The notes below the pieces were generated by a model that was not told the DNA's origin, made no database searches, and was given only the letters and a program-made list of their open reading frames with translations. Shown here in pieces: positions 112 to 33,347 of a DNA stretch of 64,000 bases (the first letter of the stretch is position 1; each line of letters starts with the position of its first letter). This stretch comes from Patescibacteria group bacterium. GTDB taxonomy: Bacteria; Patescibacteriota; Minisyncoccia; Phycocordibacterales; UBA9973. The DNA is taken from positions 13,301-77,300 of the forward strand of contig JAZJXT010000005.1 of assembly GCA_040390725.1 (NCBI GenBank), given 5' to 3'. Position numbers and translations under genes: made by a program.

Positions 112-342
112 ATGGTAGTACGAATGAGACATACAAAATCGCATACAAAGAACAGGCGCTCACATCATGCGTTGGTTAAAACCAGTTTCGCAAAGTGCGA
201 GAATTGCTCTGCTTTGAAAAAGCGACATACAGTTTGCAAATCTTGCGGTACTTATCGCGGGATGAAAGTTGTGGATTTGGTCAAAAAAGCTGAAAAGAAA
301 GCTACGAAAGCAAAGGCTAAAAAGGTAGAAGCAGGCAAATAA
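112..342 (+). CDS. rpmF: 50S ribosomal protein L32
   Basis: C-terminal part of ORF 1..342 reads MVVRMRHTKSHTKNRRSHHALVKTSFAKCENCSALKKRHTVCKSCGTYRG, a typical L32 zinc-ribbon. The upstream ORF extension is AT-rich hydrophobic noise. TGcTATATT extended -10 (97-105) sits 6 nt before ATG 112. Confidence 0.8.
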   Translation: MVVRMRHTKSHTKNRRSHHALVKTSFAKCENCSALKKRHTVCKSCGTYRGMKVVDLVKKAEKKATKAKAKKVEAGK

Positions 343-404
343 TTTAATTAGTTTCTAGGGGCTAGTGACTAGAAGCTAGAACCTAAAAACTAGAACCTAA
401 TTTA

Positions 405-1304
405 ATGGCAAACAGGCACCTTTCCAGATCAATAGTGCTCCAGACGCTTTTCGAGTGGGATTTTAACGGCGCAAAAGAAGTCGACTTTAAGGAAATTGTA
501 AATCGTGACTTGAAAGAATATGCCCCTGGACTCGAGGATGATGTTTTCGTGTCCGCGCTTTTGGATTCTGTGGTAAAAAAGAGAACTATTATTGATGAAA
601 TTATTGAGAAAGCTGCGCCTGACTGGCCTTTAGAAAAAATCTCCGTTGTTGATAGAAATATCTTGAGAATAGGTTTGGCTGAGCTACTTTTTGGCGACAG
701 GAAACAAGTGCCTCCAAAAGTCGCTATCAATGAAGCCATTGAGCTGGCGAAAACTTTCGGCGGAGAAAATTCTAGTAAATTTATAAATGGAGTTCTCGGT
801 GCTGTTTACAAAGAAATAGGTGAGCCAGGCAAGGACGAAACGAGCAAGAGCAAAAAGCCCGATGAGCCGGTAGATGTTTTGACGTTGCCGGTAGAAAAAT
901 TTGGCGGGGCGCTTATTTTTTCAAAAAAAGGATCTGACTTATATTTGGCATTAGTTCACGATGTCTTTGGATATTGGACTCTTTCAAAAGGGCACATAGA
1001 GCCTGGTGAGAGTGAAGAAGATGGCACGATGAGAGAAATAAAAGAAGAAACAGGGCTTGATATAAAAATTATAGAAAAGTTGGGTGAGAACGAATATATT
1101 GCAAAGCACCCGGAAAAAGGAAAAATTTTAAAAAAAGTCACTTATTTTTTAGCAGAAAGCGAATATAAAGAATTAGTATTAGAGCAGTCAGGCGGGCTCG
1201 ACGGAGCTAGATGGTTTCAGCTTTCTGAAATTCCTGAGCTTCGCATTTATAACGATATTATACCGTTGATTTCAAAAGCGATTGAGATTATTAGTAAGGG
1301 GTAA
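405..1304 (+). CDS. nusB: NusB antitermination factor fused to a C-terminal NUDIX hydrolase domain
   Basis: N-terminal ~150 aa match NusB (RNILRIGLAELLF, PPKVAINEAIELAKTFGGENSSKFINGVLG). The C-terminal ~140 aa carry a perfect Nudix box GHIEPGESEEDGTMREIKEETGL (GX5EX7REUXEEXGU). Confidence 0.8.
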   Translation: MANRHLSRSIVLQTLFEWDFNGAKEVDFKEIVNRDLKEYAPGLEDDVFVSALLDSVVKKRTIIDEIIEKAAPDWPLEKISVVDRNILRIGLAELLFGDRKQVPPKVAINEAIELAKTFGGENSSKFINGVLGAVYKEIGEPGKDETSKSKKPDEPVDVLTLPVEKFGGALIFSKKGSDLYLALVHDVFGYWTLSKGHIEPGESEEDGTMREIKEETGLDIKIIEKLGENEYIAKHPEKGKILKKVTYFLAESEYKELVLEQSGGLDGARWFQLSEIPELRIYNDIIPLISKAIEIISKG

Positions 1305-1324: not shown

Positions 1325-2020
1325 ATGATAAATTTTTCTGAATTCGAGAAAAAAACAAAAATAATTTTTAAAAATAAAGACTTGTTGAAGCAAGCATTCA
1401 TCCACCGTTCATATATAAATGAAAATCCAAATGTTGGGCTATCGCACAATGAACGCTTGGAATTTTTAGGTGATGCAGTGCTCGAGCTCATCGTGACGGA
1501 TTTTCTTTATAAAAAATATCCAAATTATGCGGAAGGGGAATTGACGGCATTACGTTCAGCCCTCGTGAATGCAATTATTATTTCCGAAATTGCTTCAAAG
1601 ACAGGCATGAATGATTTTCTGCTTTTGTCCAAAGGGGAATCCAAAGATATGGGTAAAGCAAGACAATATATTTTGGCGAATACTTATGAGGCATATGTAG
1701 GAGCATTATATATGGATCAGGGATATGATATGGCGGATAAATTTGTTAATGAAACTATTTTGCCTCATACTGATGAAATTATTGCCAAGAAACTTTGGCG
1801 CGATGCGAAAAGCTTGGTACAAGAAAAGTCCCAAGAATTTGTGGGCTTTACTCCAGCGTATAAAGTCTTGCACGAGACAGGTCCGGATCACGACAAGCAT
1901 TTTACCGTCGGCATATATTTCGGACCGGAGTTAATAGCCGAAGGCAAAGGCAAATCAAAACAAGAGGCCGAACAAAAAGCTGCTGAAAATGCATTAAAAT
2001 TAAAACGTTGGTTGGATTAA
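1325..2020 (+). CDS. rnc: ribonuclease III
   Basis: RNase III signature ERLEFLGDAVLEL; C-terminal dsRBD (KHFTVGIYFGPELIAEGKGKSKQEAEQKAAENALK). Confidence 0.9.
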   Translation: MINFSEFEKKTKIIFKNKDLLKQAFIHRSYINENPNVGLSHNERLEFLGDAVLELIVTDFLYKKYPNYAEGELTALRSALVNAIIISEIASKTGMNDFLLLSKGESKDMGKARQYILANTYEAYVGALYMDQGYDMADKFVNETILPHTDEIIAKKLWRDAKSLVQEKSQEFVGFTPAYKVLHETGPDHDKHFTVGIYFGPELIAEGKGKSKQEAEQKAAENALKLKRWLD

Positions 2021-2024
2021 AAAT

Positions 2025-4316
2025 ATGCGATTGAATTCCATAGAAATAAACGGCTTCAAATCTTTTTCCAAAAAAACACCTTTGGAATTTTTGAGTCCTG
2101 TTGTGGCTGTGGTGGGGCCCAATGGCTCCGGCAAGTCTAACGTCGTCGAGGCATTTCGCTTTGTGCTCGGTGAACAATCAATGAAATCAATGCGAGGTAA
2201 AGCCGGCTCGGATTTGGTTTTTAAAGGTTCAAAAAATCTACCGAAAGGCACTCGCGCATCTGTGACGATTTATTTTAATAATGCGGATAAGATTTTTAAA
2301 CTTTCAAATGAAAGCGGCGAGAATGTAAATTTAAATTTTGATACTATTTCTATTTCTCGTGAAGTGCATATTGATGGATTAAATAAATATATTTTAAACG
2401 GCACCGAGGTACGCTTGAAAGATATACAAAATCTTTTGGCCTCGGTGAATATCGGTTCTTCCGGGCACCATATTATTTCTCAAGGCGAGGCGGACAGGAT
2501 TTTAAATGCATCACCACGGGACAGGCGGGAAATGGTAGAGGATGCACTAGGATTGAAAATATACCAATATAAAATAAAAGAAGCAGATAGAAAATTAGAG
2601 AGAACTTTAAATAATATTAAAGAAGTTTCTTTGTTGCGTAGAGAAAACGCTCCGCACTTGAATTTCTTAAAAAAACAAGTGGAGAAATTTGAAAAAGCTA
2701 AAGAAATGAAAGTGGAACTGCTCGACCTTTATCGAGATTATTTAAAAAAAGAGAGCATATATTTAGACCAAGAAAAAAATAATTTAAATAATGAGAAAAA
2801 TAAAATCTCAAATGAACTGGCAAATATCGGTGGGCAACTTTCCTCCATGGAAAGTAATGCTCCGTTTGAGGAAAATAAAAAATCAATAGAAATTAGAAAC
2901 CTTGAACAAAAAATCAGGGAAATAAGAAATGTAAAAAGTGAACTTGAAAGAAAGCTCGGACGCATTGAAGGAATGATAGAAATGGAAGAACGTCGAACAC
3001 AGAAAGCTCCGGTTGAAATACAAAATCAAAATCATACAGAAAAAGTAAATATTCCTCAAGAAGAGCTAGAGAATTTTTTACGCGAAGCGCACGAGTATTT
3101 GGAAGAGGCTATGTATATGGATGTTTTGGAAAATATTCAACCTATTTTGCGTAAAATAAAGGATATTTTGGATAGGTTTGCGAATTCTACTTCTTCGTCA
3201 AAAGTTCCTTCTGATTCTCACCAACCAGCAGGCAGAGCAGTAACTGATAATTCTGAAATGCTAAATAATGTGCAGGCTCTCAAAGATTCTCAGCAAGCAA
3301 TTCTTGCAGAAATGCAAAAGATAGAACAAGAAGAAAAAAATATTTCTGAGAATGTAGAAATTTTGAAAAGTGAAATTAGTAGAGAAGTAGAGGCAGGCAG
3401 AGAGCAAGAGCGTGCAAGGTTTGATTTGAAAATGAAACATAGTGAGCTTTCTTCGGTGTTGAATGTTTTGAAAGTCAGAGAAGAAAATTTATCACGTGAA
3501 GTGGAAAGTTTCGAAAATGAAATTAGGGAAGGTTCGGCTCTTGTCGGCGGGGAAATTTTTTCATATAAAAATGCGGAAGTTTCCGGTGATATTGAAAAGC
3601 ATACTCAAGAAGAAGAGAAAAGAAAAATAGAAAGAATTAAAATAAAATTGGAAGACGCAGGCCTCGGCGGGGGATCAGAAATAATAAAAGAATATGAAGA
3701 GGTTTCCACCCGTGATCAATTCTTGGCGAAAGAATTGGAAGATTTAGGCAAGAGTATTGATTCATTACGCATATTGATGGCGGACTTGAAAGAGAAGATT
3801 GATTTTGAATTTAAAGAAGGTGTGAAAAAAATAAATAAAGAATTCCAAGAATTTTTCGCTCTTATGTTCGGCGGGGGGTCTGGTTTTCTTTCTGTCGTTG
3901 CCGAGCAGAAAAAGGCAAAAGCAGGGGAGGAAGAAGAAACAGAAGATGGAATTATTTTTGAACATGGCATAGAAATAAATGTTTCTCTTCCGCACAAAAA
4001 AGTAAAAGAACTGCATGCGCTTTCCGGAGGCGAGCGCTCGCTCACATCCATCGCGCTTCTTTTCGCAATGTCGCAAGTCAACCCTCCGCCATTTCTTATC
4101 TTAGATGAAACTGACGCAGCCCTCGACGAAGCCAATTCGCGTAAATATGGCGATATGGTGGAAAGACTTTCCAAGCATTCACAGCTCATAGTCGTCACTC
4201 ACAACCGTGAGACGATGTCCCGCGCAGGAGTCCTCTACGGCGTTACCATAGGTGCCGACGGCGCATCCAAACTCCTCTCCGTCAAATTCGACGAAGCTCA
4301 AGCTATTGCGAAATAA
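2025..4316 (+). CDS. smc: SMC-family chromosome segregation ATPase (short 763-aa form)
   Basis: N-terminal SMC head MRLNSIEINGFKSF...VVGPNGSGKSNVVEAFRFVLGEQS; long coiled coil; C-terminal signature LSGGERSLTSIALLFA and Walker B FLILDETDAALD. About 400 aa shorter than canonical SMC. Confidence 0.8.
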   Translation: MRLNSIEINGFKSFSKKTPLEFLSPVVAVVGPNGSGKSNVVEAFRFVLGEQSMKSMRGKAGSDLVFKGSKNLPKGTRASVTIYFNNADKIFKLSNESGENVNLNFDTISISREVHIDGLNKYILNGTEVRLKDIQNLLASVNIGSSGHHIISQGEADRILNASPRDRREMVEDALGLKIYQYKIKEADRKLERTLNNIKEVSLLRRENAPHLNFLKKQVEKFEKAKEMKVELLDLYRDYLKKESIYLDQEKNNLNNEKNKISNELANIGGQLSSMESNAPFEENKKSIEIRNLEQKIREIRNVKSELERKLGRIEGMIEMEERRTQKAPVEIQNQNHTEKVNIPQEELENFLREAHEYLEEAMYMDVLENIQPILRKIKDILDRFANSTSSSKVPSDSHQPAGRAVTDNSEMLNNVQALKDSQQAILAEMQKIEQEEKNISENVEILKSEISREVEAGREQERARFDLKMKHSELSSVLNVLKVREENLSREVESFENEIREGSALVGGEIFSYKNAEVSGDIEKHTQEEEKRKIERIKIKLEDAGLGGGSEIIKEYEEVSTRDQFLAKELEDLGKSIDSLRILMADLKEKIDFEFKEGVKKINKEFQEFFALMFGGGSGFLSVVAEQKKAKAGEEEETEDGIIFEHGIEINVSLPHKKVKELHALSGGERSLTSIALLFAMSQVNPPPFLILDETDAALDEANSRKYGDMVERLSKHSQLIVVTHNRETMSRAGVLYGVTIGADGASKLLSVKFDEAQAIAK

Positions 4317-4328
4317 AGAAGAGAAAAG

Positions 4329-4712
4329 AACCTCACCCCAGATTCAAAGTATCTCACCCTAAGATTCAAGGAACCTCACCCCATCCGCCAGCTGGCGGAC
4401 TCTCCTTATTAAGGAGAGGGGGAAAATACAAAATTCAAATCGGCATGACTATTTTTTATAACAAATCTAAAAATTTAACTAAAAGAATTTTATTGAGACA
4501 ATCTCAAACTTCTCAAGAAGTAATGCTTTGGGGAAAATTAAGAAATATAAAGAATATGACAAGCAAAGGTCTGATTATTTATCGGTATTTAATATCAAAG
4601 TAATTCGTTTTTGGAATAATGAAATAAATACCAATATAGAAGGTGTCATATTAAAAATTATTGATGAGTTGAATTCCCCCTCTCCTTAATAAGGAGAGGG
4701 TAGGGTGAGGTT
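4329..4712. mobile_element. MITE-like non-autonomous element: imperfect terminal inverted repeats flanking a decayed DUF559 endonuclease gene
   Basis: Left end: 2.5 tandem copies of cctcaccc(c)agattcaa(a)g (4331-4382), palindrome ccgccagctggcgg (4386-4399), palindrome tctccttattaaggagaggggg (4401-4422). Right end 4676-4712 ccccctctccttaataaggagagggtagggtgaggttc is the reverse complement of the left end minus the ccgccagctggcgg piece. Confidence 0.55.
4445..4700 (+). pseudogene. DUF559 (Vsr-like endonuclease domain) gene remnant, internally deleted and frameshifted
   Basis: Frame 1 from ATG 4445: MTIFYNKSKNLTKRILLRQSQTSQEVMLWGKLRNIKNMTSKGLIIYRYLISK* (DUF559 N-terminal pattern LRxxxTxxExxLWxxLRN). 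A second frame from ~4603 gives VIRFWNNEINTNIEGVILKIIDELNSPSP* (DUF559 C-terminal RFWNNEV..LEGVL). The ~60-aa core between them is missing. Confidence 0.55.
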
Positions 4713-4801: not shown

Positions 4802-4954
4802 TGCTGTAGACTATTTCTTTGAAAAAACATTGATTTTTGATTACTTAGGTTATTTGGATTTCCCGAAATTAGATCACAACATTTGTTGTGTTTTAATTTC
4901 GGGAAAAGCTGAACACCCGAGTAAGAAGTAGGCGAAAAAATAAACTTAGAAATA

Positions 4955-5948: not shown

Positions 5949-7841
5949 TTACTTTGCAAACTTAATTTTCTCTTCTTTTCCTAAAATAGGTTTTTGGGGT
6001 TGGAAGACAGAATTTAATTTTATTATATTTTTCTTTACGGACATTGTGCCAGCTTTGTAAAGTTTTATTTCTAGCAACATTCCTTGCATCGTGTTTTCCG
6101 AGAATTTTTGGTCAAAGATAAAGTTGCCTAATGAGTAGGCTATATAACTATTTTTATAAACTTCAAAATCTTCCACGACATGCGGATGCGCGCCGATGAC
6201 GAGTTTGGCACCGTCGTCTACGGCTTTATGCGCTAGGTATTCTTGGCGAGTATTATGTTTTGTTTGATATTCCTCACCGAAATGAAATGACACCACTAAA
6301 CTATCCACTTGTTTCGAAGCATTTTGAATTATTTTATCAAAATTCGGATTAGTGGTGAGTAGTAGTCCAGATTCTGTATCAGTAGGAGTCAACCATTCTG
6401 GGCCTTTATCAGAGAATGCCAGATAGCCTATTTTCATACCATTTTTTTCAATTATTTTAGGAATTTCTGCGTTATTTTCATTTGCTCCGCCTCCCGAATA
6501 AAGAATTTCGTTTTCTGTTAAGTGCGAAAGTGTGTCTTCGAAAGCTTCACGACCCCAGTCGCCGATATGATTGTTTGAAATAGAAAGTACATCTATGCCA
6601 GCACCCTTGAGTGCGGGTATAGTTTCCGGATCCATTCTGAAAGAATATAAATTGTGTTTATCTTCTCCTTGGTCTGACGCTGGGCCTTCTAAATTTGCAA
6701 AGACGATATCATTTTTATTAAGTTCACCCATGTTTTGGAAAAGAGCGGAATAGTCGCCGTTGAAATTCTTGCGAACGGAACTTTTTACTCCGCGGTCGAG
6801 CATGATGTCGCCCAAGAATGCTAAATTCACATAGTCAGGTTCTGCAAATTCAGGCATGCCTTCTTTGGTTTTTACCCAATTACTTTTTGCGTCTATTTCA
6901 CCACCGTAATAAATATTTTTCTTCACAAATTTTAAAATACTTTCCACGTCTTTTTTGCGGTCTGGTGTACGGAGGAGGACAATAGCTACATTTCTTTTCC
7001 CGGACTCAGAAAGAGGCAGGGAAAAATTTGAAATCACCGTTTGCTTAGCTTCGTCGGTGTATCCGCTCTTACCGCCCAGGTATCCATCATCACTTAGGAA
7101 TTGATTGGTGCTGTACCAGAAATGTTTTTTATTGCTGTAACTTTTATTTTGAGTTATTTTTAAAACATTAGGCGCGTTATTTTTTAAATATCCGGCGAGA
7201 GAAAATAGGTCGCGTGCGGTGGATTGATTGTTCGGCGAGAGTCCGCTCGGGTCTTCAAAGGACGTCGAAGGCATTGATAATCTTTGCGCTTCTTGATTCA
7301 TTTTTTGCAGGAAAGTTTCTCTATTAAAGTGTTCGGCTATTATTTCAGCGGCATCATTTGAAGATTCCAGTAGAAGAGGGTAGAGGATATCGCTTATCTT
7401 TATTTTTTCATTTAAATGAAAAGCGCCGTTTTGTCCGTATGTGGCAAGGGCTTTTTTGGAAACAACAGCCACATCATTGTCATCAGGCAGTTCTGTGGCG
7501 GTGAGAGCCGTCATAAGTTTTGAAACAGATGCGATAGGGTATTTTTGTTCTTCTTTTTTCTTTAAAATTATTTCACCGGTGTCCAAGTCACCCACTATGT
7601 ATGCATCAGCAGAAATCTTCGGCGCTATTTTTGGATCTTTTAGAAAATAAAAACTTGTCTGCTCAGGAGTTTTTGTTTCAGATATTGGTGCCGGTTGTGT
7701 TTTCGGGACTTCATTTTGGGTATTTCCTTCTTTTGATATTTTATAATATCCGATGGCTTGCGTTATGAAAAAAGCGGAGGCTAGTCCTACGGTTAAGGAT
7801 ATAATTACAAATAGAAATTTTTTTGCTGCTCGTTTAACCAT
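5949..7841 (-). CDS. membrane-anchored fusion of a serine-type D-Ala-D-Ala carboxypeptidase domain and a CapA/PgsA-like metallophosphatase domain
   Basis: N-terminal TM helix; PBP5-type motifs SVSKLMT (SxxK), ESSND (SxN), KSGYT (KTG). C-terminal half has CapA motifs (LAFLGDIMLDR, FANLEGP, SISNNHIGDWG, VIGAHPHVV). Confidence 0.75.
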   Translation of the reverse strand: MVKRAAKKFLFVIISLTVGLASAFFITQAIGYYKISKEGNTQNEVPKTQPAPISETKTPEQTSFYFLKDPKIAPKISADAYIVGDLDTGEIILKKKEEQKYPIASVSKLMTALTATELPDDNDVAVVSKKALATYGQNGAFHLNEKIKISDILYPLLLESSNDAAEIIAEHFNRETFLQKMNQEAQRLSMPSTSFEDPSGLSPNNQSTARDLFSLAGYLKNNAPNVLKITQNKSYSNKKHFWYSTNQFLSDDGYLGGKSGYTDEAKQTVISNFSLPLSESGKRNVAIVLLRTPDRKKDVESILKFVKKNIYYGGEIDAKSNWVKTKEGMPEFAEPDYVNLAFLGDIMLDRGVKSSVRKNFNGDYSALFQNMGELNKNDIVFANLEGPASDQGEDKHNLYSFRMDPETIPALKGAGIDVLSISNNHIGDWGREAFEDTLSHLTENEILYSGGGANENNAEIPKIIEKNGMKIGYLAFSDKGPEWLTPTDTESGLLLTTNPNFDKIIQNASKQVDSLVVSFHFGEEYQTKHNTRQEYLAHKAVDDGAKLVIGAHPHVVEDFEVYKNSYIAYSLGNFIFDQKFSENTMQGMLLEIKLYKAGTMSVKKNIIKLNSVFQPQKPILGKEEKIKFAK

Positions 7842-10650: not shown

Positions 10651-10696
10651 TTGCTTTTTTTACTAGAACCTATAAACTAGAACCTATAACCTAATT

Positions 10697-11356
10697 ATGC
10701 GTTTTCATATAATCACAATTTTCCCCGAGGCATTTGATTCTTATTTAAAAGAGTCTATTGTCGGGCGGGCGATAGAGAATAAAAATATTTCTGTGAAGTT
10801 TTATAACCCGCGAGATTTTATAAAAGCTCCAAAGAATAATTATAAACCTGTTGATGATAAGCCTTACGGCGGAGGTCCGGGTATGGTGATGAGGGCAGAG
10901 CCTATCTTGCTTGCTGTCACCAAAGCACTTTCAAAAATAAAAAATAAAAAAAGTAAAATTTTAACTGTTAATTTTATTCCATCTGCAGAAAAATTTACTA
11001 CAAGTGTGGCAAAAAATATTTCAAAAAAATATACGGACGTTATTTTAATTTGTGGTAGGTATGAAGGTATAGATGCGCGAGTGGATAAAATTTTGAAGAC
11101 TAAGAAGTTTTCAATCGGGGATTATGTTTTGACCGGCGGGGAATTGCCAGCAATGGTTTTAGTAGATTGCATTTCCCGACAAATTCCCGGAGTTTTAGGT
11201 AAATATGAATCACTTGAAGAAGAAAGAATTTCGAGCAGTGAAGTTTATACGAGACCGGAAATTTTAAAATACAAAAACAAAAATTACAAAGTGCCGAAAG
11301 TTTTACTTTCTGGTAATCACAAACTCATAGATGAGTGGAAGAAAAATAATTCCTAA
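10697..11356 (+). CDS. trmD: tRNA (guanine37-N1)-methyltransferase
   Basis: MRFHIITIFPEAF, YGGGPGMVM, and the SPOUT knot region GRYEGIDARV and GDYVLTGGELPAMVLVD. Confidence 0.9.
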   Translation: MRFHIITIFPEAFDSYLKESIVGRAIENKNISVKFYNPRDFIKAPKNNYKPVDDKPYGGGPGMVMRAEPILLAVTKALSKIKNKKSKILTVNFIPSAEKFTTSVAKNISKKYTDVILICGRYEGIDARVDKILKTKKFSIGDYVLTGGELPAMVLVDCISRQIPGVLGKYESLEEERISSSEVYTRPEILKYKNKNYKVPKVLLSGNHKLIDEWKKNNS

Positions 11357-12138
11357 ACTTTTATTCCGTATTTTTTTATAACTTCTAAAATTTCATCGTG
11401 CACGAGTCCGTTTGAGGCGAGCTGTCCGGCGACTTTTTGGTCATAACGAGTATTTTGTCCAAAAAGGTCGGTGGCTTTTCCGCCGGCTTCTTCGACTATT
11501 ATTTGAATAGCTGCCGTATCGTGCGGGTCTTTGCCTCCGAATAGAATTGCCGAGAATTCTCCCGCGCCTACCAATGCGCCCATGTAATCTATCGAAAGTC
11601 CGGTCACTAAACGCACACCGCGTTCACGCAATGCTTCACCGACGGGGAAAAGATTGATAACCCCTGCAGACCATTTGCCTATGCCGATGACTGTTTTTTG
11701 AACGCTAGGGGAAGCAGAAACTTTTATTGTTTCGCCGTTTAGTGTCGCGCCTTTGCCTTTTTCTGCGAAATAAATTCTATTTAAAAATGGGTCACAAATA
11801 ACGCCGAGTATCGGAATGCCATCTTGCACTAATGCTAAAGCAAAAGCCGATGTAGGTATGCCGTGTGCGAAATTATGCGTGCCGTCCACAGGGTCGCAAA
11901 TCCAAGCGTATTCACTTTTTTGTAAGATATCTTCCGCCTCTTCGGAAAGGATGCTGTGGGTAGGGAAATGCTCGGTGATTTTTTTTACCACGATTTCGTT
12001 GATAGCTGTATCAGTCTCTGTTACCGGCGAATGGTCTTCTTTCCATTCCTTTTTCATACCCATCATAAAATTCTTGCGCATAATTTCACCCGCTTCTTTT
12101 GCCAATTCCAAAGCCACTTTTTTATATTCTGAATCCAT
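11353..12138 (-). CDS. suhB: inositol monophosphatase family protein (SuhB-like)
   Basis: IMPase motifs ETDTAINE and WICDPVDGTHNFAHGIP. Confidence 0.85.
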   Translation of the reverse strand: MDSEYKKVALELAKEAGEIMRKNFMMGMKKEWKEDHSPVTETDTAINEIVVKKITEHFPTHSILSEEAEDILQKSEYAWICDPVDGTHNFAHGIPTSAFALALVQDGIPILGVICDPFLNRIYFAEKGKGATLNGETIKVSASPSVQKTVIGIGKWSAGVINLFPVGEALRERGVRLVTGLSIDYMGALVGAGEFSAILFGGKDPHDTAAIQIIVEEAGGKATDLFGQNTRYDQKVAGQLASNGLVHDEILEVIKKYGIKV

Positions 12139-32075: not shown

Positions 32076-33347
32076 ATGCAAAGTCAAGCGTTAAAAAATT
32101 ATAAGTTGCCGGACAAACCGGGAGTTTATTTTTTTATGGGTTCAAAGCCACGAACAAAAACCTCACCCCCGACCCCTCTCCATTTTAAAGAAATGGAGAG
32201 GGGAGGAATGCCGAAGGCAGGAGGGGTGAGGGAAGAAATTCTCTATATCGGCAAAGCGACAAGTTTGAAAGACAGGGTAAAGAGTTACTTTGGTAAAGAT
32301 TTATTTAATACTCGTGGGCCGTTGATTGTGGATATGGTAACGAAAACCACAAGTTTAAAATGGCAGGAAACTGACTCAGTTTTGGAAGCGCTTATTTTGG
32401 AAGCGAATTTAATTAAAAAACATCAGCCATATTACAATACAAAAGAAAAAGATGATAAAAGTTTTAATTATGTTTGCATAACACGTGATAAAAAAATTAT
32501 GTTTGTGCGCGGAAAAGTACTAGATATAAAAAAATATAATTCTGTTTTCGGACCTTTTCCATCTGGTAGTCAACTTAAAGATGCTATGAAAATTGTGCGT
32601 CGAATTTTCCCATATATTGAAGAGAGAAGGGGTGCAAAAGGCAAAGAAGAATTTTATAAACAAATAAAGCTTTTCCCATTAGATTCAAAAGAAAATACAA
32701 ATAACATTAAAAACATAAAACTATTTTTTGAGGGCAAGAAACAAAAAGTAGTAAAGAACTTAGAAAAAGAAATGAAGATGCTTGCGCATGAGCATGAATT
32801 TGAACAGGCAAATGAAATAAAGAAACAGCTATTTGCATTAAAGCACATCAATGATGTTGCATTAATAAAAGGAGATTCTTTTGGAGGCTCAACCTCCAAA
32901 AATTTCAGAATTGAAGCTTATGATATAGCTCATATGTCAGGACAAAATATGGTGGGTGTGATGACGGTTTTGGAAGATGGCGAAGTAAATAAAAATGAAT
33001 ATAGAAAATTCAAGATAAAAAATTATGATAGTGCGAATGACACCGGAGCATTGTTGGAAGTTTTAGAAAGACGTTTTAATCATTCCGAGTGGCAATATCC
33101 GAAATTAATTGTGATAGACGGAGGCAAGGCACAGCTGAATGTAATTAAAAAATTCCAAGCTCGCGTCGGGTTCGCTATTCCGTCAGTGGCGGTAGTGAAA
33201 GATGAAAGGCATAAAGCTAAAGGCATTTTGGGTGACAAAGAAACTATAAAAAAGTTCGAAAAAAGCATTTTACTAGCAAATGCCGAAGCGCATAGGTTTG
33301 CTATCAAATATCACATAAAAACACGCAAAAATAGCTTTTTGGGGTAG
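32076..33347 (+). CDS. uvrC: excinuclease ABC subunit C, short form lacking the C-terminal (HhH)2 domain, with an in-frame palindromic-element insertion in the GIY-YIG domain
   Basis: GIY-YIG (PGVYFF...ILYIGKATSLKDRVKSYF), UVR motif (EFEQANEIKKQLFALKHI), endonuclease domain (RIEAYDIAHMSGQNMVGVM). Ends at 423 aa. Confidence 0.85.
   Translation: MQSQALKNYKLPDKPGVYFFMGSKPRTKTSPPTPLHFKEMERGGMPKAGGVREEILYIGKATSLKDRVKSYFGKDLFNTRGPLIVDMVTKTTSLKWQETDSVLEALILEANLIKKHQPYYNTKEKDDKSFNYVCITRDKKIMFVRGKVLDIKKYNSVFGPFPSGSQLKDAMKIVRRIFPYIEERRGAKGKEEFYKQIKLFPLDSKENTNNIKNIKLFFEGKKQKVVKNLEKEMKMLAHEHEFEQANEIKKQLFALKHINDVALIKGDSFGGSTSKNFRIEAYDIAHMSGQNMVGVMTVLEDGEVNKNEYRKFKIKNYDSANDTGALLEVLERRFNHSEWQYPKLIVIDGGKAQLNVIKKFQARVGFAIPSVAVVKDERHKAKGILGDKETIKKFEKSILLANAEAHRFAIKYHIKTRKNSFLG
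32161..32232 (+). repeat. 72-bp imperfect palindromic element (CCTCACCC...GGGTGAGG termini) inserted in frame inside uvrC
   Basis: cctcacccccgacccctctccattt | taaagaa | atggagaggggaggaatgccgaaggcaggaggggtgaggg. It encodes the extra peptide ~KPRTKTSPPTPLHFKEMERGGMPKAGGVRE between conserved GIY-YIG blocks and shares termini and the CTCTCC core with the element at 4329-4712. Confidence 0.7.

Follow-up and report, generated by a model that had tools for sequence, protein, structure and literature searches.

Fusion of the transcription antitermination factor NusB to a predicted Ap4A-hydrolase-class Nudix domain is conserved in Patescibacteria

Introduction

NusB is among the most invariant small transcription factors of bacteria, and it is unusual for it to carry a conserved accessory domain; the canonical protein stands alone and is about 140 amino acids (aa) long. 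In a 64,000-nucleotide stretch of DNA from a Patescibacteria group bacterium (assembly GCA_040390725.1, contig JAZJXT010000005.1, positions 13,301 to 77,300 of the forward strand; hereafter the window), one open reading frame (ORF), referred to as nusB-nudix henceforth, encodes NusB followed by a Nudix hydrolase domain. A preliminary description made from the sequence letters had singled out this ORF and proposed that it brings a hydrolase into the antitermination complex. The locus raises the questions of whether the fusion is genuine and what a Nudix domain might do when it is attached to NusB.

Results

The NusB-Nudix fusion is real, conserved and old

The nusB-nudix gene is a single ORF of 299 codons on the + strand (405..1304), running from ATG to TAA without an internal stop codon or frameshift. 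A Pfam profile search placed PF01029 (NusB) at residues 7-136 (E=1.1e-34; 120.2 bits against a cut-off of 23.1) and PF00293 (NUDIX) at residues 170-282 (E=2e-15; 57.4 bits against 21.1). Among the NCBIfam profiles, the nusB equivalog TIGR01951 was passed with 126 bits (cut-off 88.35), a second NusB equivalog model, NF001223, stayed below its cut-off (88.6 versus 131 bits), and RsmB models were matched weakly by the NusB half. The Nudix box, GHIEPGESEEDGTMREIKEETGL (residues 196-218), agrees with GX5EX7REUXEEXGU at every defined position. The preliminary description had claimed both families in one ORF, a textbook Nudix box and an open reading between the halves, all of which hold; its proviso that the C-terminal domain might fall below the Nudix profile threshold is removed by the Pfam score.

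To place this protein among its relatives, a database of 5.8 billion proteins was searched and the best 120 clusters were examined. All 120 carried both Pfam domains in proteins of ~300 aa with 76-100% identity, and they came from NCBI, JGI, ENA and Logan; one of them, cluster P0001 from an NCBI metagenome-assembled genome (MAG) contig, has the same sequence as the window protein. Clusters with a name, from Patescibacteria, Paceibacterota, Nomurabacteria and Minisyncoccia, are annotated just as 'transcription antitermination factor NusB', a label that hides the second domain. When 1.84 billion cluster representatives were scanned exhaustively with HMMER, 157 clusters were found at E<1e-30. Among the first 150 of these, about 53 were complete two-domain proteins, with identity down to 31%. 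In a scan of GTDB species genomes, which returned 80 loci, all from Patescibacteria by context, the fusion was present in about 33, from Kaiser-, Zambryski-, Ryan-, Niyogi- and Nomurabacteria, 'Paceibacterota' and 'Parcubacteria'. The fusions found in clusters and genomes all fall within Paceibacteria lineages of Patescibacteria. At locus L030, one of two apparent exceptions, a masked run of Ns (about 4247..4263) puts the gene out of frame so that it looks split, and a normal fusion appears when the sequence is read across the Ns. The linker between the domains is conserved among the fused proteins as well and begins with GEPGKD.

We therefore give almost no weight to an artefact in which a missed stop codon, a frameshift or a chimeric assembly joins two genes: the ORF is uninterrupted, the linker is conserved, and the same architecture recurs widely, four independent data sources contributing at least 120 close clusters that have it and GTDB about 33 species genomes. 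Nothing in favour of an artefact was found; nusB and nudix occur as separate neighbouring genes in Saccharibacteria, a different lineage. The hidden stop codon or sequencing error envisaged in the preliminary description thus fails as an explanation, as the fusion recurs in independent assemblies. Each half belongs to a well-known family, and the combination is new to the literature searched: in a search of incomplete coverage, neither that literature nor the 2017 Nudix clan review mentioned a NusB-Nudix architecture. The architecture is present in public databases and has apparently not been described in papers.

The other apparent exception is explained by its codons. In L031 (3992..4936 of CAZWMQ010000003.1, a GTDB species-representative MAG), nusB-nudix contains in-frame TGA codons at 4220-4222, 4547-4549 and 4836-4838. 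These coincide with the near-invariant tryptophans W74, W191 and W270, and a full-length protein results if TGA is read as tryptophan, which this genome probably does. The recoding of UGA known from Patescibacteria is to glycine, and a switch to tryptophan would be unusual.

By synteny, the fusion gene is the nusB of the cell

The order rpmF-nusB-rnc(-smc) is kept almost everywhere in the 80 loci, with or without a Nudix domain, as determined by tblastn: ribosomal protein L32 is encoded upstream of nusB in nearly all of them and rnc downstream in essentially all. Because the slot occupied by the fusion holds a plain nusB in relatives, the fusion gene is regarded as the housekeeping nusB. Judged by this synteny, by TIGR01951 and by the window, within which no second NusB was found, it represents the nusB of the cell rather than a paralogous copy, and the Nudix domain is attached to the antitermination factor itself, as the preliminary description had assumed. 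Only 21 nt separate it from rnc, and the two genes are probably co-transcribed.

The NusB half retains the features of the canonical factor. In an AlphaFold model built from a 50-sequence alignment, this domain consists of 7 helices with a predicted local distance difference test score (pLDDT) of ~90 or more, and Foldseek aligned it with E. coli NusB (3imq) at a template modelling (TM) score of 0.89 and a root-mean-square deviation of 1.7 Å. The NusB signature residues R4, R8, Q13, D83, L87, R88, E93, F126 and G129 are invariant or nearly so in 50 fused sequences. F126, invariant in this set, aligns in HMMER with F122 of Aquifex NusB, which lies on helix alpha7 and stacks on U8 of BoxA in the NusB-NusE-BoxA structure; the F122D variant is defective in vivo (PMC3177189). 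F16 sits at the position of E. coli Y18, at the NusE interface, in a manual alignment. Surface positions specific to the fused proteins, which might have revealed a docking site (F16/Y16, K59, A133 and others), could not be separated from phylogeny. The window protein thus shares with NusB of E. coli, Aquifex and Thermotoga a full-length NusB by profile, fold and locus, including the invariant U8-stacking Phe (F122 in Aquifex and E. coli), and differs from them by a C-terminal extension of ~160 residues that comprises the linker and the Nudix domain.

A split form of the locus exists in Saccharibacteria

Plain NusB of 140-183 aa was found in about 43 of the 80 loci, Yanofsky-, Azam-, Wildermuth-, Nealson-, Harrison-, Doudna- and Falkowbacteria among them. 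At these loci, of the Paceibacteria type, the gap between nusB and rnc is -19 to 182 nt, too small for a Nudix domain, and the notion that unfused relatives in general carry the Nudix as an adjacent gene had to be dropped: it holds only for Saccharibacteria. There, three loci (L069, L079 and L080) have nusB (151-159 aa), a separate Nudix ORF (167-179 aa) and rnc in succession. With the L069 Nudix as query, the best 120 clusters were stand-alone Nudix proteins of ~165 aa labelled Saccharibacteria or Saccharimonadales, 119 of which have a strict Nudix box. Six metagenomic contigs, representing three Nudix proteins, show the order leuS - nusB - nudix - rnc - (rpsP) - KH - trmD; across the three GTDB loci and these contigs, the stand-alone Nudix measures 163-179 aa. 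Gaps of 5-16 nt and 0-25 nt between successive nusB, nudix and rnc genes on the Saccharibacteria contigs suggest that the three form an operon. In a neighbour-joining tree of NusB plus Rnc, a short alignment that makes the result indicative only, fused loci grouped in one main clade apart from a few outliers; split loci formed the outgroup.

As the triad occurs in split form in one class and in fused form in another, gene-neighbourhood and Rosetta-stone evidence point to a functional link among nusB, nudix and rnc. The comparison of orthologues called for by the preliminary description gave a fused gene at about 33 of the 80 loci and adjacent genes in Saccharibacteria only; the fusion that it described is genuine and conserved, and the conserved association with rnc and the split nusB/nudix/rnc arrangement lay beyond what it had foreseen.

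The same arrangement invites a less purposeful explanation, namely that a housekeeping ApnA (diadenosine polyphosphate) hydrolase gene lying by chance between nusB and rnc lost its stop and start signals in a streamlined genome, and that the two halves work independently with the Nudix often decaying. With adjacent genes 5-16 nt apart, a small mutation would suffice, and many related lineages have no Nudix at the locus. On the other hand, the order nusB-nudix-rnc is found in two classes, split once and fused once, which such an accident does not readily account for.

The C-terminal tail of some unfused NusB proteins also bears on the history of the locus. Those of L034-L036, L038, L039 and L043-L045 (153-180 aa) end in Y[KR]E[IL]GEP.K followed by a charged low-complexity tail; the motif, which also opens the linker of the fused proteins, reads GEPGKD in most, GEPMKN in L034 and GEPGKE in L044 and L045. 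Either this GEPGKD-type tail is older than the fusion or the Nudix was lost secondarily, and the latter case would fit a fortuitous fusion.

The Nudix half is predicted to belong to the Ap4A/Ap6A-hydrolase class

Sequence matches of the Nudix half in the Protein Data Bank (PDB) were led by Thermus Ndx1, an Ap6A (diadenosine hexaphosphate) hydrolase (1e-12), Aquifex aq_158, an Ap4A (diadenosine tetraphosphate) hydrolase (9e-11), and human NUDT2 (2e-8), with Chlamydia CT771 and the C. elegans Ap4A hydrolase as further matches. Foldseek of the C-terminal half returned 3i7u (TM 0.85) and 1vc8 (TM 0.84) as the best structures, followed by the diadenosine polyphosphatase Rv2985/MutT1 of Mycobacterium, the NrtR Nudix domain and 1ktg. 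The Nudix domains of NrtR (3gz8) and AraR (5bs6) were among the fold and sequence matches at TM 0.68, weaker than the Ap4A hydrolases. No PDB chain found by Foldseek spans both halves. From sequence and fold, the Nudix half is predicted to be a member of the class that includes aq_158, Ndx1 and NUDT2. It shares the fold of 3i7u, 1vc8, 3u53 and 1ktg (TM 0.84-0.85), and its intact box, phosphate-binding Lys and adenine-stacking aromatic pair appear from alignment to be held in common with them; the fused family differs from these enzymes in being joined to NusB and in mostly lacking the catalytic glutamates.

Other Nudix families were rejected by their equivalog models: RppH (NF001936, 25.7 versus 118 bits; Bacillus YtkD type TIGR02705, 21.8 versus 154.4), NudC, the NAD+ diphosphatase that removes NAD caps (NF001299, 32.3 versus 158 bits, with the Nudix core alone matched), and MutT, the 8-oxo-dGTP diphosphatase (TIGR00586, 17.2 versus 97.9; NF008044, 21.2 versus 148 bits). 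An RppH-like mode of action may nevertheless apply despite non-membership in the RppH families. Of the substrates named in the preliminary description, Ap4A is backed by similarity to its hydrolases; the NAD cap is not, NudC lying far below its cut-off, and nothing indicates (p)ppGpp.

The AlphaFold model as a whole has a mean pLDDT of 92 and a predicted TM score (pTM) of 0.63, with two confident domains joined through residues 144-151, which are disordered (pLDDT <50).

Catalytic glutamates are lost repeatedly and the putative nucleotide pocket is kept

Conservation in the fused family is distributed unevenly. The first Glu of REUXEE (E16 of the box) is present in 83 of the 120 close relatives and in 12 of the 53 distant representatives, and all four box glutamates are present in 61 and 10, respectively. 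Mapped on a neighbour-joining tree of 174 fused proteins, built from a short alignment, the first Glu must have changed state at least 19 times. Nine other residues (G168, D186, W191, T192, K195, Y231, Y247, W270 and Y282) persist in 119-120 of the close and 41-50 of the distant proteins. Three of them, K195, Y231 and Y282, align with K42, Y82 and F128 of human NUDT2 in an HMMER alignment to 3u53. In Ap4A hydrolases, the P1 phosphate is held by a His, Lys42 and Tyr82, and the adenine is sandwiched by a loop-5 Tyr and a second Tyr or Phe, Phe128 in the human enzyme (PMC4734340); the roles of these residues were transferred to the fused proteins by sequence alignment from the eukaryotic enzymes. 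In the 41 distant representatives without the key Glu, K195 is found in 37, Y231 in 34 (plus 4 with Phe) and Y282 in 38, and the three positions are among the ten most conserved of the Nudix domain in that group. The full length of the domain is retained down to 31% identity.

Because the glutamates are lost in most relatives and the nucleotide-binding residues are kept, hydrolysis is not the conserved function of the fusion. The family looks as if it were selected for the fold and an apparent adenine-phosphate pocket rather than for hydrolysis. The window protein has the complete catalytic set, a minority case, and hydrolytic activity is its default prediction. The proposal of a hydrolase in the antitermination complex is compatible with the intact box seen here, and the disappearance of the catalytic glutamates from most fused relatives is a feature that the preliminary description had not anticipated.

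This pattern speaks on both sides of the fortuitous fusion introduced above. Repeated loss of catalytic residues and the flexible linker are what independent halves would show, but decay should shorten the domain and erode the pocket, and neither the retained length nor the near-complete conservation of the nine non-catalytic residues agrees with that; we consider the explanation unlikely.

A pocket conserved without its catalytic Glu would also suit an alarmone sensor, in which the Nudix domain binds free Ap4A, another ApnA or ATP and thereby changes how available NusB is or what conformation it adopts, making rRNA (ribosomal RNA) antitermination and processing responsive to stress; hydrolysis in intact-box members would merely reset the signal. 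NrtR and AraR, whose Nudix domains are among the matches listed above, could serve as models, as could CFIm25, the inactive Nudix protein of an RNA-processing factor, which binds Ap4A at ~2 uM without hydrolysing it (PMC2425470). However, the disordered linker and the pTM of 0.63 offer no rigid interdomain interface through which ligand binding could be passed on, and the Saccharibacteria version, a separate protein with an intact box, resembles an enzyme more than a sensor. A sensor of this kind seems doubtful to us.

Features of the surrounding window

The coordinates of the locus are given in Table 1. The mechanical ORF of rpmF begins at position 1, whereas its match to L32 starts from the ATG at 124.

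Table 1. Features of the nusB-nudix locus and its immediate neighbours; positions are those of the window.
Feature	Position	Strand	Basis
nusB-nudix fusion gene, 299 aa plus stop	405..1304	+	Pfam, NCBIfam and homologue search
NusB domain, residues 1-139, all-helical	405..821	+	PF01029, TIGR01951, Foldseek
Linker, residues 140-165, opening with conserved GEPGKD	822..899	+	AlphaFold, linker/tail comparison
Nudix domain, residues 166-299, predicted Ap4A/Ap6A-hydrolase class	900..1301	+	PF00293, PDB sequence matches, Foldseek
Nudix box GHIEPGESEEDGTMREIKEETGL, residues 196-218, intact	990..1058	+	Motif match
rpmF (ribosomal protein L32), upstream neighbour	124..342	+	PF01783, E=2e-13
rpmF-nusB intergenic region, with tandem CTAGAACCTAA at 376-386 and 390-400	343..404	+	Sequence inspection
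rnc (RNase III)	1325..2020	+	PF14622, PF00636, PF00035
smc, short form, 763 aa	2025..4316	+	PF02463, synteny

A tandem motif, CTAGAACCTA[AT], with a period of 14 lies directly before the ATG codons of nusB-nudix (405; motif at 376-400) and trmD (10697; motif at 10663-10694). It has 6 matches against 0.96 expected, a number reached in 0 of 100 shuffles, and a CTAG-rich stretch occurs farther upstream in both intergenic regions. The motif may be a shared promoter, operator or 5'-untranslated-region element of ribosome-biogenesis genes. In a promoter and terminator scan around nusB-nudix, matches were no more frequent than expected by chance.

About 10 kb from nusB, beside rpsP, a KhpA-like KH gene and trmD, the window encodes a SuhB-like inositol monophosphatase (11353..12138 on the - strand; PF00459, E=3e-50). 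With this gene present, it is unlikely that the Nudix domain substitutes for a missing SuhB.

Typical bacterial SMC proteins are around 1,100-1,200 aa long. In the 763-aa SMC of the window, SMC_N covers residues 3-748, and related loci match residues 1-763 in tblastn and are equally short. A 630-aa ORF (5949..7841, - strand) combines Peptidase_S11, a D-Ala-D-Ala carboxypeptidase domain (residues 73-272), with PGA_cap/CapA (residues 340-578). A UvrC-like ORF of 423 aa (32076..33347, + strand) matches the UvrC RNase H endonuclease domain alone, with neither a GIY-YIG nor a UVR match listed at E<=1e-5, and could represent a truncated or divergent UvrC. The window is rich in genes of translation and transcription (rpoB, rpoC, rpoD, dnaG, obg, prfA-like, L25 and S16). 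Over the whole 64 kb, ARAGORN found no tRNA gene, no Rfam family reached its gathering threshold, and neither an rRNA operon nor an S10 gene was found.

Discussion

What, then, might a Nudix domain do on NusB? The reading we favour is that the tethered Nudix binds an adenine nucleotide polyphosphate beside the BoxA-bound leader, with the 5' (p)ppA or dinucleoside tetraphosphate (Np4A) end of the transcript as the favoured ligand, and that cleavage, where it occurs, aids processing by RNase III. We give this a probability of roughly 0.45.

The scheme would run as follows. A housekeeping nusB would have absorbed a neighbouring Nudix gene of the Ap4A-hydrolase type. By analogy with known NusB proteins, the NusB half would pair with S10 (NusE) and bind BoxA in the nascent rRNA leader, the step that would seed the rRNA antitermination and chaperone complex and promote RNase III processing. 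It is established that NusB/S10 on BoxA keeps the rRNA leader looped to polymerase. Mutants in nus genes are suppressed by rnc mutations (PMC4807359); coupling between Nus factors and RNase III in rRNA maturation is supported by both genetic and mechanistic data (PMC4807359; bioRxiv 10.64898/2026.03.17.712431). A flexible linker of ~25 residues would tie the Nudix domain to the end of the BoxA-binding helix alpha7, and because the linker starts there, the domain would be held beside the 5' leader RNA. K195 and Y231 would form a phosphate clamp and Y231 and Y282 an adenine sandwich, as predicted from alignment, which makes an adenine nucleotide polyphosphate the likeliest ligand. The favoured target would be the 5'-terminal (p)ppA or Np4A-capped end of the transcript that carries BoxA; free ApnA would be the second choice. 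In intact-box proteins, that of the window included, hydrolysis as in RppH or NUDT2 would leave a 5' monophosphate, which could help leader turnover together with the co-transcribed RNase III. NUDT2 provides a precedent for such a step: as RppH does, it turns PPP-RNA into P-RNA (PMC8616924). Across the fused family, binding would be conserved and catalysis would not. Ligand, 5'-end target and RNase III coupling are our proposals, put forward alongside the observed fusion, its conservation and synteny, the subfamily assignment and the pattern of retained residues.

Several observations weigh against this reading. Plain NusB without a Nudix at the locus in many Patescibacteria shows that the module is dispensable for NusB function generally. 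Recurrent catalytic loss means that hydrolysis is dispensable in most lineages, which weakens any essential removal of 5' pyrophosphate. The conservation of W191, W270, Y247, D186 and G168 may in part reflect fold stability alone, and that K195, Y231 and Y282 line an open pocket is a prediction from alignment. The pTM of 0.63 and the disordered linker mean that no fixed interdomain geometry is predicted, and the Nudix domain is acidic (isoelectric point about 5.0), which does not suggest contact with the body of the RNA. The RNA 5'-end target is suggested by tethering geometry and by precedents. As to the split form, a profile of the fused domain scores the Saccharibacteria Nudix at ~80 bits, equal to Aquifex aq_158, so that orthology of the split and fused Nudix is not decidable from these scores.

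Loss of catalytic residues with conservation of other surface residues could also mean that the Nudix fold acts as a protein scaffold, an adaptor within the rRNA antitermination complex that would connect NusB/S10-BoxA with RNA polymerase, NusA/NusG or RNase III in the manner of E. coli SuhB. SuhB is a precedent for an enzyme fold in a NusB-dependent complex (PMC4807359; bioRxiv 10.64898/2026.03.17.712431), and the Nudix clan has non-enzymatic members that take part in protein interactions (PMC5389931). Yet the residues that are conserved correspond to nucleotide contacts of Ap4A hydrolases and not to a new surface, and the SuhB-like inositol monophosphatase encoded in the window probably fills that role already. 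A scaffold is improbable in our view, and nucleotide binding beside the leader remains the reading that we prefer.

Comparison with known systems places the protein between several types. RsmB/Sun has a NusB-like N-terminal domain fused to a 16S rRNA 5-methylcytosine methyltransferase and resembles the window protein in joining a NusB-fold RNA-binding module to another domain, one that acts on rRNA in the case of RsmB. It differs in that its NusB-like domain is a paralogue and not the NusB of the cell, and in that the partner is a methyltransferase dependent on S-adenosylmethionine and not a Nudix domain. CFIm25 (NUDT21) is a Nudix protein in an RNA-processing factor, that of pre-mRNA 3' processing. 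Two of the four catalytic Glu are missing from it, and it binds Ap4A but does not hydrolyse it (PMC2425470), in which it resembles the box-degenerate majority of the fused family; however, CFIm25 is a eukaryotic stand-alone dimer that recognises UGUA RNA, homology is limited to the fold, and the window protein has all catalytic residues. E. coli SuhB has a small-molecule phosphatase fold and is recruited in a NusB-dependent manner to the complex that couples rRNA transcription with RNase III processing, but its fold is that of an inositol monophosphatase and it is a separate polypeptide. NrtR and AraR combine a Nudix domain of reduced catalysis with a nucleic-acid-binding regulator; they differ in their winged-helix DNA-binding partner and in their ligands, ADP-ribose or an arabinose-related compound. 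RppH and NUDT2, RNA 5' pyrophosphohydrolases and Np4A decappers, are likened to the window protein through the action proposed for it on a 5' polyphosphate RNA end; unlike RppH, the window protein falls outside the equivalog families, and an RNA target is suggested for it by position.

The fused and split forms together indicate an unstudied link between adenine-polyphosphate chemistry, that is ApnA and 5'-triphosphate or Np4A ends, and the coupling of rRNA transcription to RNase III. That the Nudix is a lineage-specific component of patescibacterial rRNA transcription and processing, which reads and in some species cleaves the 5' end of the transcript (a pppA end or Np4A cap), is an idea that we advance with little confidence. 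The fused family is in any case a natural series from enzyme to pseudoenzyme, in which glutamates were lost many times and the apparent nucleotide pocket was retained. Ribosome biogenesis in Patescibacteria, or the candidate phyla radiation (CPR), is poorly known; if such a lineage-specific component exists, a NusB-tethered or co-expressed Nudix would tie the status of RNA 5' ends, or the level of ApnA, to BoxA-dependent antitermination and to the maturation of rRNA by RNase III.

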